Shown one piece after another: positions 2,671-21,021 of a stretch of 64,000 bases of DNA. Under the pieces are notes generated by a model. That model searched no databases. It saw only the letters and a program-made list of their open reading frames with translations, and was not told the DNA's origin. The position numbers and the translations under genes are program-made. Each line of letters begins with the position of its first letter. The stretch's first letter is position 1. Origin of the DNA: an uncultured Planctomycetales bacterium (lineage in GTDB: Bacteria; Omnitrophota; Gorgyraeia; Zapsychrales; JANLHA01). The stretch covers positions 150,304 through 214,303 of the forward strand of contig CAZAXH010000004.1 of assembly GCA_964489065.1 (NCBI GenBank), read 5' to 3'.

Positions 2671-3999
2671 TTATCGTACGACGTCACCCACACGGATGGA
2701 GGTGACTTTGTTTTTAATATCCGCGGCGGCAATGTCTTTGCGCACCTGGATCACTTCCAGAGCCGCGACATACTCCGCTCCCCGGTAAACACTCATATTA
2801 TCCCCCAGCTTTAGACCGTCATTCTGGCCTAAATCAACGATAACAAAATTATTTTCATCATTCACGGAAACAATATTGCCGTCAAACCCCGGAGCGGGCA
2901 AAACGACTTCCGGGATCCCCTCGCTCTTTTCTCCAGCGCCGGAAACGACAATCGGCGGAAGCTCCACGGCCTTGGAAGACGCTCCTGACATCTGAAAATT
3001 TTTCTCCAGGCTGTCCTTAATTTGCCAGATCTCATCAATGCGGTTTTGAATGACATGCTCGGTTTCCATCAGTTTCCGCTCCACGTCCTTCTTTTCATCC
3101 TGCAGACGCACAATACTCTTTTCCAAAGCAATTTTAGTCGAACTCAAGTCTTTGATCTGAGACCGCAAGGCCATGTTTTCCTCGTTAAGTTTCGCGAAGC
3201 GGCCATTTAAAAATTCCTTATCATTTTCCGCCCGGGCTAGGGCCAGAGATAAATTGTCCGCCAAATCTTTCCCGTGTTTGATTTCCCGCTCAATAGAATC
3301 TTTGGTGGTAACCAACTCCGAAATTTCCAGCTCCAAGTCTGAGTTTGATTTCTTTAAGGCTTCCAACTCGAGCATATTGGCATCCAGTTTCTTTTTTAAA
3401 GCATTCACTTCCAGTTCAAGGGAAGTTTTCTCGCGGATGACCTGCGCCCAATAAGTTTCATTATCCGGCGGCACATCAGGGATATTGTTCGTCGATATTC
3501 TTTGACCGGGAGAAGACGGTTCCGGCTTGTTATCTGCCGCGGGGCTGACAGAAGCAACCGTCCCCGGAGGCTCCACCGGCGCTCCGGTTTCCCGCTCCAC
3601 ATATTTATAGACAATTTGCGGTTCGGATTTTTCTTTGACCTTAGATAACAAGGTGGTCCGCTCTTTTTCCAGCGCCGCTATTTTTTCCTGCAAGACATTC
3701 CGTTCGCCGGTCAAATCCGCAATCTGTTTGTTCAGGGACTCCACATCACCATCGAAAGAACTTAAGCGCTCTTCCAACTCGGATTTCTTTTTCTCAACAT
3801 CTTTCAGCTTTTCCTGCAGGTCTTTATTTTCAAAGATATATTTTTTCTCCCGTTGCTGAAAATCATCCACCTGTTTCTCCAAAGATATCTTTGATTTATC
3901 AGACTCTTGTTTCTGAAAAGCAATATACGTTAGCAATCCGACGGAGACAAAAAGCAATAAGAGCAAGAAAACTAAGATAGACTTTGCAGCTCTCGACAT
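2671..3999 (-). CDS. membrane-anchored long coiled-coil protein with C-terminal beta domain
   Basis: N-terminal TM helix, roughly 300 aa of heptad-rich E/K/L sequence, and a C-terminal domain (NIVSVNDENNFVIVDLGQNDGLKLGDNMSVYRG). Strong SD AAGGAGA before the ATG at 3999. Confidence 0.6.
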   Translation of the reverse strand: MSRAAKSILVFLLLLLFVSVGLLTYIAFQKQESDKSKISLEKQVDDFQQREKKYIFENKDLQEKLKDVEKKKSELEERLSSFDGDVESLNKQIADLTGERNVLQEKIAALEKERTTLLSKVKEKSEPQIVYKYVERETGAPVEPPGTVASVSPAADNKPEPSSPGQRISTNNIPDVPPDNETYWAQVIREKTSLELEVNALKKKLDANMLELEALKKSNSDLELEISELVTTKDSIEREIKHGKDLADNLSLALARAENDKEFLNGRFAKLNEENMALRSQIKDLSSTKIALEKSIVRLQDEKKDVERKLMETEHVIQNRIDEIWQIKDSLEKNFQMSGASSKAVELPPIVVSGAGEKSEGIPEVVLPAPGFDGNIVSVNDENNFVIVDLGQNDGLKLGDNMSVYRGAEYVAALEVIQVRKDIAAADIKNKVTSIRVGDVVR

Positions 4000-16725: not shown

Positions 16726-17841
16726 TTATATAATATAAGGCATCAGCGCGTCCAGCACGAGACGCCCCCGGTCCGTCACCCTCCAGAACCGACCCCCCAC
16801 GCTGGACTCCTGATCCAACCACCCCTCCTGAATCAAAGACTCAACCCTCACCTCCAAGGATTCCGGCACCGTCACACGGTAGCGTTCTTCCAGTTGTCGC
16901 ACATCCACGCCCTGGTTCATCCTCAAGCCGAAAGCAATCGCTTCTCTGAATTGCTGTTCGGACGTTAACATTTCATATCCCTCTTCCGGATTCACTTCTT
17001 TTTCAACGGCCGTCATATAGGCCTTCATCTGGGAGGTATTCCAACTCCGCCGGCCGTGGCGGTGCGAATGCGCGCCCACACCAAGCCCGATGTAATCTCC
17101 CCCCAGCCAGTAATTCTTATTATGAAACGACTCCATCCCGGGTCGGCAAAAATTGCTGATCTCATACTGGCCATACCCGTTCCGAAGAAATCTCTGCCGG
17201 GCCTCCTCGTAAAATACGGCTTCGGTATCCCGGGGTAATGGCTGAACTCCCCGTGAAAAAAAACGGCTGTGCGGCTCCACGCTTAACGAATACAGCGACA
17301 CATGAGCGCAGCCCAGGTCAACCAGGTGTTTCACGTCGCTTTCAAGTTCTGCTAAAGTCTCCTCCGGGAAAGAATACATCAGGTCCACATTAATATTCTT
17401 TAAAGGCGCCGCTTTAAGCGCGGCCACGGCCCGGGCCGATTGCTCCGCCGTATGCGTGCGTCCCATCCACCGCAAATATTTTTCATGACATGTCTGCACG
17501 CCGAGACTCACGCGATTCACTCCCAAAGACAAAAAAAGTTCCGCCTTCGCGGGATCCACGGTTTCCGGATTCGCTTCCAGTGTTATTTCCAGCCCGGGAA
17601 CGAAAGAAAAAATTCCCACGAGCCCGTCAAAAAGTTTGCGCAGTTGAGCCTCCGTTAACAAGCTGGGCGTTCCTCCTCCGACGTAAAGGGAGCCGATGGT
17701 TTCCCCGCGATACCGCCGGGCCTCTCCCAAGACACAGTCCACGTAAGGGTCCGCGTGATGTTCCTTGGCAACGGCAACAACAAACGAACAGTAGAAACAT
17801 TTTCTCAAACAAAAAGGAATATGAATATATAATGACAGCAT
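16726..17841 (-). CDS. hemW: radical SAM heme chaperone HemW (HemN-like)
   Basis: YIHIPFCLRKCFYCSF CxxxCxxC radical-SAM motif in a HemN-family fold. 371 aa. Confidence 0.8.
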   Translation of the reverse strand: MLSLYIHIPFCLRKCFYCSFVVAVAKEHHADPYVDCVLGEARRYRGETIGSLYVGGGTPSLLTEAQLRKLFDGLVGIFSFVPGLEITLEANPETVDPAKAELFLSLGVNRVSLGVQTCHEKYLRWMGRTHTAEQSARAVAALKAAPLKNINVDLMYSFPEETLAELESDVKHLVDLGCAHVSLYSLSVEPHSRFFSRGVQPLPRDTEAVFYEEARQRFLRNGYGQYEISNFCRPGMESFHNKNYWLGGDYIGLGVGAHSHRHGRRSWNTSQMKAYMTAVEKEVNPEEGYEMLTSEQQFREAIAFGLRMNQGVDVRQLEERYRVTVPESLEVRVESLIQEGWLDQESSVGGRFWRVTDRGRLVLDALMPYII

Positions 17842-18017
17842 TTCTAAAAACGTTTGGGGGACAAAAATTTTTTATTTGACACCGCACTCATAAACCTGGC
17901 CACGCCAGCGCAATTCCCGTCGGGTAAAAAACAAAACAAAAAATAAAAATTCATTTTGATTTAAAAATATTTACAAAAAAATAAAAAGAATTTTTATTAA
18001 AAAATGTAAATTATTTT

Positions 18018-18045
18018 TTGCATCTTATTATGTGTGTGTTATTAT
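18018..18045 (+). promoter_or_regulatory. candidate extended -10 promoter in AT-rich island
   Basis: TTGCAT, 16 nt, TGT-TATTAT, about 45 nt upstream of the Lys-rich ORF. Confidence 0.4.
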
Positions 18046-18091
18046 TTAAGTAACATTATTTAAAATTTCTTTCACGAAAGGAGAAAGGAAC

Positions 18092-18187
18092 ATGCCAGTA
18101 AAAAAGAAAGCAGCCAAGAAAAAAACAACCAAAAAAGTCGCTAAGAAAAAAGTTGCAAAGAAAAAAACTGCTGCTAAAAGAAAATAA
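18092..18187 (+). CDS. 31-aa lysine/alanine-rich basic peptide (histone H1-tail-like), MPVKKKAAKKKTTKKVAKKKVAKKKTAAKRK
   Basis: Strong SD AGGAGAAAGGA 2 nt (a, c) before the ATG. Clean stop, followed by an intrinsic terminator. Not in the ORF track because it is under 60 aa. Confidence 0.65.
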   Translation: MPVKKKAAKKKTTKKVAKKKVAKKKTAAKRK

Positions 18188-18209
18188 TTTTTACCACACC
18201 CCTTGAAAA

Positions 18210-18240
18210 CCCCCTGAGTTCCTCAGGGGGTTTTCTTTTT
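18210..18240 (+). terminator. rho-independent terminator
   Basis: CCCCCTGAG-ttc-CTCAGGGGG (9 bp stem) followed by TTTTCTTTTT. Confidence 0.85.
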
Positions 18241-18302
18241 ATCTTAACGATTATGCAACTCTGCTTGATTGACCACAGTATCGTCATTATACTATAAGAA
18301 TC

Positions 18303-20690
18303 ATGATTCACCGGATAAAAAATCAAGCCGTCCTCATCCCCTTTTTCCTGGCGATTCTGCTCGTTATCGCGTTCTACGATGTCGTCTTCCTGAACAAAAC
18401 CTTTAAAGTCACAACTGCCAACTCCCAGGCCCTGCCAACCGGAGCTTACGGCCAGGAAAATAACAAACCCAAATTTATTCCCGTAAACGGCACGGATTCT
18501 CCGGTCATGGAAGAGCCCGTGTACGAATTTATCAAACGCAACCTCAGGAAAGGCATCATCCCTCTCTGGAATCCCCACCAGGCCTGCGGGTATCCGCTGA
18601 TCGCCATGATCGAGGTCGGCATGTTTTATCCGTTGATGTTCATTCTCTATCTCTTCCCGGAACTTTTCGCGTGGGACATCATGATCCTTTCCCGGTTCCT
18701 TGTCGCCGGCTGCCTCACCTACTGGTTCATGCGCACACTAGGGCTGAAAACAATCCCGTCTCTCTGCTCCGCCGTCGCCTTCATGCTCAGCGGGCCGCTT
18801 TTATCGCTCCAATATTGGACCACCAACGTTGACATCATCACGCCTTTCATCCTGCTGTCTCTGGAACGGCTGCTCCGCAAACAACGGCCGGTCGACACAG
18901 CGCTTCTTGGTGCCGCCGTCACATTCAGTATTCTGGGCGGGCATCCGGAGCATATTCTTCTGGTCAACTTTTACTGTTTCTGTTTCTTCGTATACCGAAT
19001 TTTTGTATTCCGGCGTTCCTTCCCGGCCAAACACGCGATCCAACGGTATCTTCTGGCATATCTTTTAGCGTTTGGGCTCACGGCGTTCATCACGTTTCCT
19101 TTTCTGAAAAACATCTTATTTGAATTCTGGCACGCACATCCTCCCAGAGTCGGTCTTCTTTTGGAAGAACAACGCTCCCGCGCCCTGACCCTAGCGATCC
19201 CGTATTTCTTCCAGGAGGTTCCTCTCACTTATCAGTGGGTTTTTTCCGGATGGTGGGGGGGCTACATCGGGGTATTGCCCTTTGCCCTGACATTCCTAAG
19301 CTTTTTCAATAACCATAAAAAATATGCAAACGTTTTTTTCGCGTTGATGGCTTTTCTGATCATCAGCAAACAATACGCCCTGCCTTACATCAACTGGATC
19401 GGGTATATTCCGGGCTTCAGCGTCTGCCGTTTTGGGCCGCACATGCCGGCTCTCGCCGCGTTCTCGGTGGCCGTCTGCGCCGGCATGGGGGTCCGGGGCA
19501 TCTTAAACGGCCGCCATTTATTTCTGAAAGGAATGCCCTTCAGCCTGTTTCTGATCGGGATCGTGACCGCCCACCTCATCCTGCTGAAAAATCCCGACGG
19601 ACAAGACCAGGCTTTACGCGCAAGCCTGGCGGCTTTCTCGCTCATCGTCATCTTTCAAGGCCTCCTGTTCTGCCGGGATAAAAAAATTCTAACCAAACCC
19701 GTGACCGGATTTTTGCTCTTGGCGGTTGTGTTCGGGGAGCTCTTCTCTCATATTCACCGGGAAAGGCCGTTCAGATTCCAGTCTTTCGGCGACGTGCCCT
19801 ATATCTCCTTTATCAAAAATCAACCCGAACGGGCCAGAAGCTACGGAAACTTCTGGGCTTTTTACCCGAACACCGCTTCCGGATTTGAGGTAGACGACCT
19901 GGGGATTTTCTTCAGCCTGGTCCCAAAACGTTTCGTCCGTCTGGTAAACACGCTTTTCGTCCCCCATCATTTCCGCGATGATCTGCGGCCGCCGGCCTTG
20001 AGAGCGATCCCGCTGCCTTTCAGCGAAAACATCCTGGACTTGCTCAACGTGCGCTACATTATCAAACCGGCGGATTCAACCTTTGAAAAAAAGTTTTCTC
20101 ACTTTAAAAATGTGACAAAGGATTACACGCTTGTCTACCGAGAAAAAGTGGACGTCTACGAAAGGCCCAGCGCTTATCCCCGCGCCTTTATTGTCCATAA
20201 AGCGGTTTTCCTTCCGGACGACGAGCCGTCCCTGCAGGTGCTGAAGCAGCTGAAAGATAAAAGCCGCTATGTTGCCGTGATTAACCACCCACCCGTCACA
20301 ACGATCCAGCGCCTGCTGCAGGCGACCCCCATAGAGGATCGCTCCGACGTTAAAATCACCCACTATTCCGCCAACCAGGTCGTCCTGAAGGTTGACATGC
20401 AATCTCCCGGGTTCCTGATGCTTAGCGACGCCTACCATCCGGATTGGCAAGTTTATGTAAACGGAACGCTTTCCAAGATATTCCGCGCCGATTATTTTAT
20501 CCGGTCGGTTTTCCTCTCCGCCGGGTATCATACAGTACGTTTCGTTTTTTCCCCGGCTTCTTTCAGGATCGGCGGCATCGTCAGCTGCGCGTCCCTCCTC
20601 ATCCTTATCTTCCTCTGCGCTCGACAGGCCCGAGATCATCGCCGGGCACAGCGGAACTCCGTAGCACACCTCTCCGCGGAGAACCTTTAA
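18303..20690 (+). CDS. YfhO-family polytopic membrane protein (GT-C-like glycosyl/lipid transferase superfamily)
   Basis: 795 aa, about 14 TM helices, large C-terminal extracytoplasmic domain. Architecture typical of YfhO. Confidence 0.6.
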   Translation: MIHRIKNQAVLIPFFLAILLVIAFYDVVFLNKTFKVTTANSQALPTGAYGQENNKPKFIPVNGTDSPVMEEPVYEFIKRNLRKGIIPLWNPHQACGYPLIAMIEVGMFYPLMFILYLFPELFAWDIMILSRFLVAGCLTYWFMRTLGLKTIPSLCSAVAFMLSGPLLSLQYWTTNVDIITPFILLSLERLLRKQRPVDTALLGAAVTFSILGGHPEHILLVNFYCFCFFVYRIFVFRRSFPAKHAIQRYLLAYLLAFGLTAFITFPFLKNILFEFWHAHPPRVGLLLEEQRSRALTLAIPYFFQEVPLTYQWVFSGWWGGYIGVLPFALTFLSFFNNHKKYANVFFALMAFLIISKQYALPYINWIGYIPGFSVCRFGPHMPALAAFSVAVCAGMGVRGILNGRHLFLKGMPFSLFLIGIVTAHLILLKNPDGQDQALRASLAAFSLIVIFQGLLFCRDKKILTKPVTGFLLLAVVFGELFSHIHRERPFRFQSFGDVPYISFIKNQPERARSYGNFWAFYPNTASGFEVDDLGIFFSLVPKRFVRLVNTLFVPHHFRDDLRPPALRAIPLPFSENILDLLNVRYIIKPADSTFEKKFSHFKNVTKDYTLVYREKVDVYERPSAYPRAFIVHKAVFLPDDEPSLQVLKQLKDKSRYVAVINHPPVTTIQRLLQATPIEDRSDVKITHYSANQVVLKVDMQSPGFLMLSDAYHPDWQVYVNGTLSKIFRADYFIRSVFLSAGYHTVRFVFSPASFRIGGIVSCASLLILIFLCARQARDHRRAQRNSVAHLSAENL

Positions 20691-20751: not shown

Positions 20752-21021
20752 TCAGATGGCGTTATTTTTTCTGCCTGTTTTCCCGGATTTCTTTTTTTCG
20801 ATTTTTTCAGCTTCTTTCTTTTTCTTTAACTGCAGTGCCTGATATTTTTCCGGCATATGATACTTCATCCACACTTCCGCATATAATCTCAGCCATTCGT
20901 CCGTTGCCCTCTCAATGCCGATACTATATCCTGCTTTCTGGCTTTCAATCCACAGATGCCGATTAATTTCTTCAATGACCTGTTTATTTTTCAGCAATTC
21001 ACGAACGTCGGTGATTTTCAT
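20752..21021 (-). CDS. hypothetical 89-aa protein with Lys-rich C-terminal tail
   Basis: ATG start and a clean ORF. No family recognised. Confidence 0.45.
   Translation of the reverse strand: MKITDVRELLKNKQVIEEINRHLWIESQKAGYSIGIERATDEWLRLYAEVWMKYHMPEKYQALQLKKKKEAEKIEKKKSGKTGRKNNAI

Follow-up and report, generated by a model that had tools for sequence, protein, structure and literature searches.

Protamines neutralise DNA at very high packing density, Hc1 and Hc2 reportedly make the nucleoid collapse, and the ScvA protein of Coxiella burnetii, as studied by Heinzen et al. in 1996, is reportedly only about 30 amino acids (aa) long. Both ScvA and Hq1 are small and basic, bind DNA and belong to the small-cell variant of this bacterium, in which the nucleoid is condensed (PMC4766238; bioRxiv preprint). 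Hc2 (HctB) of the Chlamydiota, a protein of 165–237 aa, consists of a variable number of Lys-rich pentamers, with 2 basic residues each and A, V, T or P as the others, together with conserved non-repeat parts at the N-terminus (24 aa) and the C-terminus (69 aa). It binds both DNA and RNA, condenses the nucleoid and acts as a repressor of transcription as well as of translation (PMC2848022). In AlgP and PhaF, tails of KPAA repeats bind DNA and position polyphosphate (polyP) or polyhydroxyalkanoate (PHA) granules, for which the folded N-terminal domain of these proteins is needed (PMC9239181). Here we analyze a micro-gene for a 31-aa lysine-rich peptide that lies upstream of yfhO in a stretch of 64,000 nucleotides (nt) from an uncultured bacterium of the Omnitrophota (GenBank assembly GCA_964489065.1, contig CAZAXH010000004.1, positions 150,304–214,303, forward strand), which we call the window and to whose first letter all positions refer. 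Comparison among related genomes shows that this micro-gene is real, conserved in Candidatus Omnitrophota and, as judged from its signals, independently transcribed. By its sequence, the encoded peptide resembles the Lys-rich repeat part of Hc2/H1-like proteins, but it is free-standing, repeat-only and micro-sized.

The micro-gene occupies positions 18092–18187 of the forward strand and consists of 31 codons, starting with ATG, and a TAA stop codon. Its product, MPVKKKAAKKKTTKKVAKKKVAKKKTAAKRK, contains 16 K, 1 R, 6 A, 3 V, 3 T, 1 P and 1 M, with 17 of the 31 residues being basic, and has a computed mass of 3480 Da, an isoelectric point of 11.7 and a charge of approximately +16.5. Removal of the Met, to be expected with Pro as residue 2, would lower the mass to 3349 Da, and trypsin would cut the peptide into pieces of 1–4 residues, too short for standard proteomics. 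The peptide is organized as (x-x-K-K-K) pentamers, and a 15-nt tandem repeat with this pentapeptide period was identified by TRF at 18131–18166 within the open reading frame (ORF). No signal peptide or hydrophobic segment was found in MPVKKKAAKKKTTKKVAKKKVAKKKTAAKRK, and no exporter gene among its neighbors. A preliminary description of the region had reported a 31-aa basic ORF with a strong Shine-Dalgarno (SD) sequence, located in an AT-rich island of less than 30% GC with hemW on one side, and all of these elements were recovered: the SD sequence AAAGGAGA is at 18077–18084, the GC content is 0.24–0.28 over 17800–18200 and approximately 0.52 in both flanks, and a hemW-like gene (Radical_SAM and HemN_C domains) is the left neighbor at 16726–17841 on the reverse strand. 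The same description had called the peptide pure Lys/Ala, which its R, V, T, P and M residues contradict, and had expected annotation pipelines to miss the gene. In fact, gene callers have recorded precisely this 31-aa product on at least 23 contigs, which come from JGI, ENA and the NCBI metagenome-assembled genome GCA_029559195.1, and all these contigs share the same neighbors. In a clustered protein collection, 0 of 10 micro-peptides looked for were present, the 31-aa copy of the window included. Many orthologs are shorter than 30 codons, and those of 15–27 aa would be under the usual gene-size cut-offs.

To the right of the micro-gene lies yfhO (18303–20690, forward strand), which encodes a YfhO-family membrane protein. 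An ortholog search with the YfhO protein against one genome per species returned 13 loci, mostly from Candidatus Omnitrophota, in which YfhO identity ranged from 49% to 95%. Of the 12 loci whose sequence extends into the upstream region, 9 contain a Lys-rich micro-ORF at this position and in this orientation, and a DNA-pattern scan of metagenome contigs added at least 9 further copies linked to hemW or yfhO. In all, about 18 loci of Candidatus Omnitrophota have the cassette between hemW and yfhO, and its SD sequence, ATG, ORF and terminator were found to be conserved in synteny in 16 loci. Its TTGCAT element and extended −10 element TRTGTTATNAT are conserved in alignment columns in 14 of the 16 family members, the SD sequence AAAGGAGA is invariant in the family and located 5–7 nt before the ATG, and the leader measures approximately 45–55 nt. 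Both ends of the peptide are also conserved, the N-terminus as M-(P/A/V)-(V/T)-KKK-(A/T)-A-KKK and the C-terminus as A-K-R-K (or KKKK). Every ortholog is followed by a terminator hairpin of −13 to −24 kcal/mol with a T-run, and the stems of these hairpins change with compensation among orthologs (CCCCCTGA, CCCTCTGA, CCCCGG and CCCTCCGA). The length of the peptide is what varies: orthologs of 15, 16, 17, 22, 27, 30, 31, 36, 37, 38, 47, 48 and 102 aa were found, and these differences correspond to the number of (V/T/A)-A-K-K-K units, from 1 to about 19 pentamers. The dominant unit, which accounts for 67 of 100 units, has 2 non-basic and 3 basic residues, and the spacing is 5.

The cassette is not present in all relatives. 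It is missing in loci L020 and L023, which do carry yfhO, and in locus L012 (approximately 3000–3200) we found a decayed copy, MPAKYK*KQ*ATKNKKRTAKRK, with 2 in-frame TAG codons and a displaced stop, around which promoter, SD sequence and terminator still look intact despite the broken ORF. In a neighbor-joining tree of YfhO, L020 is nested among cassette-bearing genomes with 99% bootstrap, and the midpoint root has cassette-bearing genomes on either side, with deep nodes being poorly supported. The nesting of L020 and the presence of cassettes on both sides of the root suggest that the cassette is ancestral in the group and has occasionally been lost or moved.

In DNA as rich in A as this, every ORF will be Lys-rich, and we therefore determined how often chance produces an equally basic one. 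Among 5000 dinucleotide-preserving shuffles of the region 17800–18240, 9% gave an ORF of at least 20 aa with at least 17 K/R. The sequence of the window alone is thus not beyond chance, and the reality of the gene is decided by comparative evidence. In 14 protein-guided pairwise comparisons, which are not independent of each other and in which the alignment favors K-K matches, the nucleotide differences at codon positions 1, 2 and 3 were 20, 21 and 146, respectively (146 of 187 at position 3), and the changed codons comprised 125 synonymous and 27 non-synonymous ones. The amino acid alphabet of the family is restricted: its 497 residues include 56% K, 21.5% A, 11.7% V, 6.8% T, 2.2% R and 1.6% P, and N, E, Q and I are absent although they are one mutation away from the Lys codons (AAR). 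These Lys codons are freely interchanged (150 AAA and 129 AAG). However, A-runs of at least 8 nt occurred once versus 21.5 times expected, with 0 of 2000 shuffles giving as low a number, and AAA-AAA-AAA was used in 0 of 68 KKK triplets. Long A-tracts make ribosomes and polymerases slip, and the avoidance of A-runs thus points to selection for faithful synthesis of the Lys frame. In addition, the other sense frames of the long orthologs are interrupted by stops. These comparisons show purifying selection on the micro-ORF as a protein-coding sequence, and together with the invariant SD sequence and ATG this selection indicates that the peptide, and not the RNA, is the selected product. The conservation of the ORF itself, and not just of AT-richness, on which the preliminary description had made its proposal depend, was therefore borne out, with reading frame, SD sequence, ATG, both termini and terminator kept in synteny and changes being mostly synonymous.

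Database searches gave no relatives of the peptide. The 31-aa sequence had 0 matches in a word-indexed search of 5.8 billion sequences and none in Pfam or NCBIfam, even at E ≤ 10, and phmmer with the 47-aa ortholog against 1.84 billion representatives returned no significant match, the best of 252 candidates having an E-value of 0.63. In the searchable literature, we found no paper containing 'KKKAAKKK', none linking Omnitrophota with lysine-rich proteins and no description of such genes. Rfam gave only chance-level matches, far below gathering scores, in the window region, and none in 20 other K-rich loci. The only curated families scoring at all were DNA-binding H1-like ones (HC2 and Burkholderia H1-like), and this only with the longer orthologs: those of 47–102 aa scored 7.8–18.2 bits against Pfam PF07382 (HC2, cut-off 40), an ortholog scored 11.7 against NCBIfam NF038052 (HC2, cut-off 135), and orthologs and other K-rich micro-ORFs scored 13–21.9 bits against NCBIfam NF038053 (hist_H1_lk_Burk, cut-off 80). 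Because these scores are sub-threshold and compositional and the non-repeat domains of Hc1, Hc2 and AlgP are absent, the peptide is not a member of the Hc2/H1-like families and no homology to them is demonstrable. The likeness to H1 tails, Hc proteins and AlgP repeats seen in the preliminary description therefore stands as one of composition and not as one of membership, with the window peptide itself giving no score.

The comparison with each of these systems defines the peptide further. Like Hc2/HctB and the Hc2-like BpH1 and Burkholderiales H1-like proteins, which bind both DNA and RNA and compact the nucleoid, it consists of consecutive Lys-rich pentamers with A, V, T or P whose number varies without loss of frame, in these proteins from one strain or species to another, and Chlamydiota, which contain Hc2, and Omnitrophota are both phyla associated with the Planctomycetes-Verrucomicrobia-Chlamydiae group. 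Unlike Hc2, the Omnitrophota peptide is repeat-only, is 31 aa long (15–102 aa in the family) and has 3 Lys per pentamer, and it lacks conserved non-repeat ends of the Hc2 type, its own conserved ends being of 3–4 residues (M-P/A/V-V/T and A-K-R-K). With the histone H1 tail and the AlgP/PhaF tails it shares the character of an intrinsically disordered, Lys/Ala-rich, low-complexity polycation. However, these tails are joined to folded domains (winged helix, helical N-terminal domain and phasin domain, respectively) and have Pro-rich repeats (KPAA, S/TPKK), while the Omnitrophota peptide is free-standing, has no N-terminal domain and is almost free of Pro (8 P in 497 family residues). Like C. burnetii ScvA, it is unusually small and very basic, which qualifies the earlier statement that it is shorter than any described protein of this kind. 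ScvA differs in being rich in Arg and Gln (approximately 23% Gln), in not being a pentamer repeat and in being restricted to C. burnetii (PMC4766238; bioRxiv preprint). Finally, protamines and viral protamine-like proteins such as baculovirus P6.9 are likewise short, more than 50% basic and fast-evolving in length with conserved composition, but these are Arg-rich proteins of eukaryotes or viruses, in many cases controlled by phosphorylation, and they have no evolutionary link to the Omnitrophota peptide.

The signals around the micro-gene suggest that it forms a unit of its own. A sigma-70-type promoter is predicted at 18018–18045 on the forward strand, with the −35 element TTGCAT at 18018–18023 and the extended −10 element TG-T-TATTAT at 18037–18045. 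The promoter scan itself called TTTGCA-17-TATTAT with TG at 18017–18045, to which TTGCAT at 18018–18023 is the alternative −35 reading. Transcription would start near 18052 and produce a 5' untranslated region (5' UTR) of approximately 40 nt (18052–18091) that holds the SD sequence, the GGAG of which sits 8 nt before the ATG of the micro-ORF. Upstream of the promoter, an A/T-rich tract at 17926–18017 (GC 0.24–0.28), which is found in the same position in all orthologs, probably acts as an UP element. This tract and the Lys codons together account for the AT-rich island. At 18066–18090, the pyrimidine stretch UUUCUUUC (18066–18073) pairs with the SD region in a weak hairpin of about −6 kcal/mol that appears in both the minimum free energy (MFE) and the centroid structure. 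Similar weak hairpins, with CCUU or CUCUU 3–5 nt upstream of the SD sequence, are found in most orthologs, and this structure may modulate translation. An intrinsic terminator at 18205–18245 begins 17 nt past the stop codon. It consists of a hairpin (18205–18235) with a 14-bp stem (GAAAACCCCCTGAG/CTCAGGGGGTTTTC), which contains 8 G-C pairs, and a 3-nt loop, followed by the T-run in TTTTTATCTT. The 9-bp stem of the preliminary description is only the G/C-rich core of this structure, whereas the presence of a dedicated terminator was correctly noted. In the predicted transcript (18052–18245), the terminator forms in both the MFE and the centroid structure and the coding part is unpaired. The near-consensus −35, the extended −10, the A/T-rich upstream tract, the invariant AAAGGAGA and the strong terminators would together be expected to give high expression.

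On this basis, we propose that the micro-gene is a monocistronic unit in which 31 codons are preceded by a strong promoter and a leader of 40 nt with a perfect SD sequence and followed by an intrinsic terminator, and that its product would be an abundant cytoplasmic polycation of approximately 3.4 kDa made of (V/T/A)-A-K-K-K pentamers. Since only charge density and the exclusion of other chemistry are constrained in the family and length is free, the peptide is likely to bind polyanions in bulk by electrostatic interaction. It would coat and neutralize DNA and compact the nucleoid in the manner of histone H1 tails, Hc2 and protamines, and some RNA binding would be expected too. We give this reading, that of an H1-tail-, Hc2- or protamine-like peptide that coats and compacts nucleic acid, a probability of roughly 0.5. 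The presence of the MxxKKKAAKK module as an N-terminal tail on HU-type and SWIB domains is in line with a nucleic acid target, and so are the DNA-binding nature of the only families that score, the nucleic acid binding of the pentamer protein Hc2 and the DNA binding of KPAA-repeat peptides. Compaction would also suit the expected dimensions of the cells, approximately 0.2–0.3 μm for up to about 3 Mb of DNA. Most Omnitrophota cells are about 0.2 μm in size and have genomes of 0.86–3.2 Mb (PMC10066038). A relative has a chromosome of 3.36 Mb, the DNA volume of which is 0.0036 μm3 at approximately 1.07 nm3 per bp, compared with sphere volumes of 0.0042 μm3 and 0.014 μm3 for diameters of 0.2 μm and 0.3 μm, respectively. 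DNA in such cells would be one to two orders of magnitude denser than in E. coli and would take up tens of percent of their volume; at such densities, counter-ions of the protamine type are used.

Several points weigh against this proposal. The abundance of the peptide is suggested by sequence signals, the cell size of the window organism is extrapolated from the phylum, and the similarity to Hc2 and H1-like proteins is compositional and under every curated cut-off. A polycation binds any polyanion and rRNA outnumbers DNA in the cell, so the target cannot be assigned from sequence. Moreover, the absence of the cassette from L020 and L023 and its decay in L012 indicate that it is dispensable or replaceable in some lineages. 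Proteins of this kind also need not be central, because a knock-out of BpH1 has no phenotype (PMC2848022).

The main competitor is an RNA or ribosome target. On this view, the peptide would associate with ribosomes as a micro-protein, chaperone RNA or damp translation by binding to rRNA, mRNA or tRNA. Very small hyper-basic proteins of the ribosome are known and escaped notice for a long time, with eL41, bTHX, bS22 and bL37 sitting in ribosomes, and the expression signals of the micro-gene look like those of highly abundant housekeeping genes. An AsnA protein, which is related to aminoacyl-tRNA synthetases, likewise carries a K-rich N-terminal tail, 2 other lineages have a micro-ORF beside RNA methyltransferase genes, and Hc2 binds RNA with high affinity and acts as a repressor of translation (PMC2848022). 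Nevertheless, the known hyper-basic ribosomal micro-proteins are of fixed length and non-repetitive, whereas the pentamer peptides span 15–102 aa within one syntenic family and 55–105 aa between near-identical marine loci. Such variation is hard to fit with a fixed ribosomal binding pocket. Furthermore, no linkage to ribosomal-protein operons was seen in about 50 loci among the matches listed, and the cassette has been lost or has decayed in some lineages. We consider an RNA or ribosome target unlikely, although it is the alternative that fits best.

Considerably less probable is that the peptide organizes polyP or other anionic condensates in the way of AlgP and PhaF, or that it is a counter-ion or a lysine/nitrogen reserve tied to lysine supply. 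The KPAA tail of AlgP is required for the spacing of polyP granules and PhaF tethers PHA granules, but both need their folded N-terminal domain for this, which the Omnitrophota peptide does not have (PMC9239181). A connection with lysine supply is suggested by the K-rich micro-ORFs that adjoin lysA in 2 unrelated lineages. This link was not seen in Omnitrophota, where no ppk, phasin or lysine-metabolism gene lies beside the cassette.

A role as an exported cationic effector, that is, as an antimicrobial or host- or prey-directed poly-lysine peptide of epibiotic or predatory Omnitrophota, appears more improbable still. Poly-cationic peptides are active on membranes and nucleic acids, and similar micro-ORFs occur on a few phage contigs. 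Some Omnitrophota are epibionts with host-dependent traits (PMC10066038). However, the peptide has no signal peptide and no amphipathic or hydrophobic face, no transporter, maturation or immunity genes are found next to it, and micro-ORFs of the same class occur in many unrelated genomic contexts.

We also give very little credence to a lysine-sensing leader peptide, in which ribosomes stalling at the 16 Lys codons would determine whether transcription runs through the terminator into yfhO. The micro-ORF does resemble the his, trp, leu, thr and pheA attenuator leaders in being short and rich in the codons of one amino acid (16 of 31 being Lys) and in having a strong terminator within 17 nt and a same-strand gene next, and such a cassette is followed by lysA in one other lineage. 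It differs from them in having neither an antiterminator nor a cognate operon and in being followed by a gene with its own promoter: no antiterminator pairing was found, the ORF being unstructured with the terminator formed in both predicted structures, and yfhO is preceded by the promoter TTGATT-17-TATACT at 18265–18293 on the forward strand, which ends 9 nt before its ATG. The orthologous loci have TTGnnn-17-TAnAnT ending 6–11 nt before the yfhO ATG. Because yfhO has no SD sequence, a read-through RNA would translate it poorly. In addition, L020 and L023 carry yfhO but not the cassette, no connection of YfhO with lysine is known and the transcription unit includes no cognate biosynthetic operon, the ends of the peptide are conserved as amino acids while the repeat number varies six-fold, and even the lysA-linked cassettes are parted from lysA by a terminator and a promoter. 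The promoter of yfhO and the absence of an antiterminator thus indicate that the micro-gene is not a leader peptide of yfhO.

Equally hard to sustain is that the ORF is not a protein gene at all, being instead a chance ORF, a functional A-rich RNA of approximately 190 nt (e.g., an ARN-rich small RNA that binds Hfq) or the complement of an antisense hydrophobic Phe/Ala/Leu peptide: the frequency of equally basic ORFs in composition-preserving shuffles (9%), the identity of AAR codons with ARN triplets, 2 stop-free antisense frames and the intact signals around the broken ORF of L012 all speak for it, but they are outweighed by the invariant SD sequence and ATG at 5–7 nt spacing, the terminal motifs conserved as amino acids, the strictly restricted alphabet, the free interchange of AAA and AAG that nonetheless breaks A-runs, and the stops in the other sense frames of long orthologs. 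Since the antisense frame that shares its wobble position with the micro-ORF (Phe/Ala/Thr/Leu) would also look synonymous, antisense ORFs were checked explicitly. They were rejected because they have only internal TTG starts, T/C-rich upstream regions without an SD sequence and inconsistent ends, and because they are missing in 3 loci (L017, L131 and L027). A type I toxin, that is, a small hydrophobic antisense peptide, was likewise discarded, there being no conserved start or SD sequence on the opposite strand.

Similar micro-ORFs are found far beyond the hemW-yfhO locus. A DNA-pattern scan for an SD sequence, an ATG and x-x-K-K-K-[A/T]-A returned at least 120 metagenome stretches, and at least 53 of the ORFs encode pure K/A/T/V/P(/G) peptides of 15–164 aa. 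Most of those listed stand alone, preceded by a long spacer and with a strong hairpin directly past the stop codon, and they lie in unrelated neighborhoods, the host loci having 36–61% GC. Because the N-terminus is partly imposed by the scan pattern, we make no claim that the whole class shares an ancestor. One group of 15 marine loci encodes peptides starting MATKKKAAKKK(V/A)TKKK, which are 55–105 aa long where the ORF is complete and differ in repeat number between near-identical flanks, a variation that recalls the repeat-number polymorphism of Hc2. The gene of this group sits between genes for a Cu-oxidase_4 (YfiH/PgeF-like) protein and an RlmI-like methyltransferase, and its promoter TTGACA-17-TAAAAT and 5' UTR hairpin GGUAUUUGGGCGCUGAAACGAAUACC, which has no match in Rfam, are almost invariant. 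In another set, K-rich micro-ORFs of 19–29 aa adjoin lysA, which encodes a diaminopimelate-decarboxylase-like protein (Orn_Arg_deC_N and Orn_DAP_Arg_deC domains): those of L040, L089 and L133 lie upstream of it and those of L055, L060 and L085 downstream. Each gene has its own promoter, and 2 unrelated lineages are represented. This adjacency may couple lysine supply to the synthesis of a peptide that is more than half lysine, and given its occurrence in 2 lineages such coupling may extend to the class. The MxxKKKAAKK sequence also occurs as an N-terminal extension of larger proteins, namely of HU-type Bac_DNA_binding domains (L051, L107 and L047), of SWIB/MDM2 domains (L054, L066 and L143, with the L143 protein being identical to that of L054) and, once, of AsnA (aspartate-ammonia ligase, L043).

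These micro-ORFs occur in marine, freshwater, soil and digester samples, HMMER-type searches are blind to them and they are often under gene-size cut-offs. Tentatively, and with clearly less confidence than we place in the proposal for the window peptide, they might represent a large and essentially unrecognized class of free-standing, repeat-only poly-lysine micro-proteins (approximately 15–164 aa, with their own promoter and terminator) that would serve many bacterial lineages and some phages as bacterial 'protamines', i.e., as bulk counter-ions whose repeat number tunes the compaction of the nucleoid or of condensates.

Should the Omnitrophota peptide reach the abundance that its signals suggest, it could serve as a major counter-ion of chromatin or nucleic acid in a whole uncultured phylum of cells of approximately 0.2 μm, in which DNA would be packed at densities near those of phage heads and sperm nuclei. 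Inventories of nucleoid proteins and catalogues of small proteins would miss the entire class, because sequence searches return nothing and many orthologs have fewer than 30 codons. The natural series of orthologs of 15, 22, 31, 47 and 102 residues would be suited to studying how the length of a polycation affects the condensation of DNA and RNA, and the repeat-only architecture bears on the long-standing proposal that Lys-rich tails of the H1 type are of bacterial origin.

Further K-rich micro-ORFs were noted on phage and soil contigs. A 16-aa peptide, MAPKKKAAKKKPMKKK, is encoded on 4 phage contigs (L062, L148, L149 and L150), in one of which (L062) its ORF lies between 2 large ORFs resembling portal and major capsid genes (putative), and 2 other phage contigs, L153 and L144, have K-rich versions of 20 and 21 aa, respectively. 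An identical 24-aa peptide, MATKKKAAKKGGKKKGGKKSAKKR, is encoded on 5 soil-type contigs (L046, L075, L122, L137 and L138), and its 5' region contains the long inverted repeats CAAGATGTTGTG...CACAGCATCTTG and GACCACAAGA...TCTTGTGGTC.

Within the window, the AT-rich region shows no change in skew and its AT-rich layout is kept in orthologs, and a replication origin or a foreign island is accordingly not favored as the source of its AT-richness. The region includes the palindrome CCCGTCGGG (consensus CYCGWCGRG) at 17916–17924, which may act as an operator or mark the boundary of the cassette. This palindrome is located 146–178 nt 5' of the micro-ORF ATG in 13 of the 16 hemW-linked cassettes, is flanked by A/T runs and switches its center between GTC and GAC across loci, and it is missing from the hemW-yfhO spacer of L023, which has no cassette. 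As an operator, it could serve either the micro-gene or the divergent hemW. In the window it occurs once, compared with 2.3 times expected by chance, so that its meaning derives from conservation across loci and no regulon can be inferred. Beyond the hemW-like gene, a polyprenyl synthase gene is found farther to the left. On the other side, the mRNA of yfhO appears to be leaderless or near-leaderless (18265–18305), and the orthologous loci have the same layout. Just downstream of yfhO, at 20752–21021 on the reverse strand, a second AT-rich patch (GC approximately 0.38) contains an 89-aa ORF, for which no Pfam match was recorded; its product has a Lys/Glu-rich C-terminal tail (...LQLKKKKEAEKIEKKKSGKTGRKNNAI), and the ORF is called in all related contigs.

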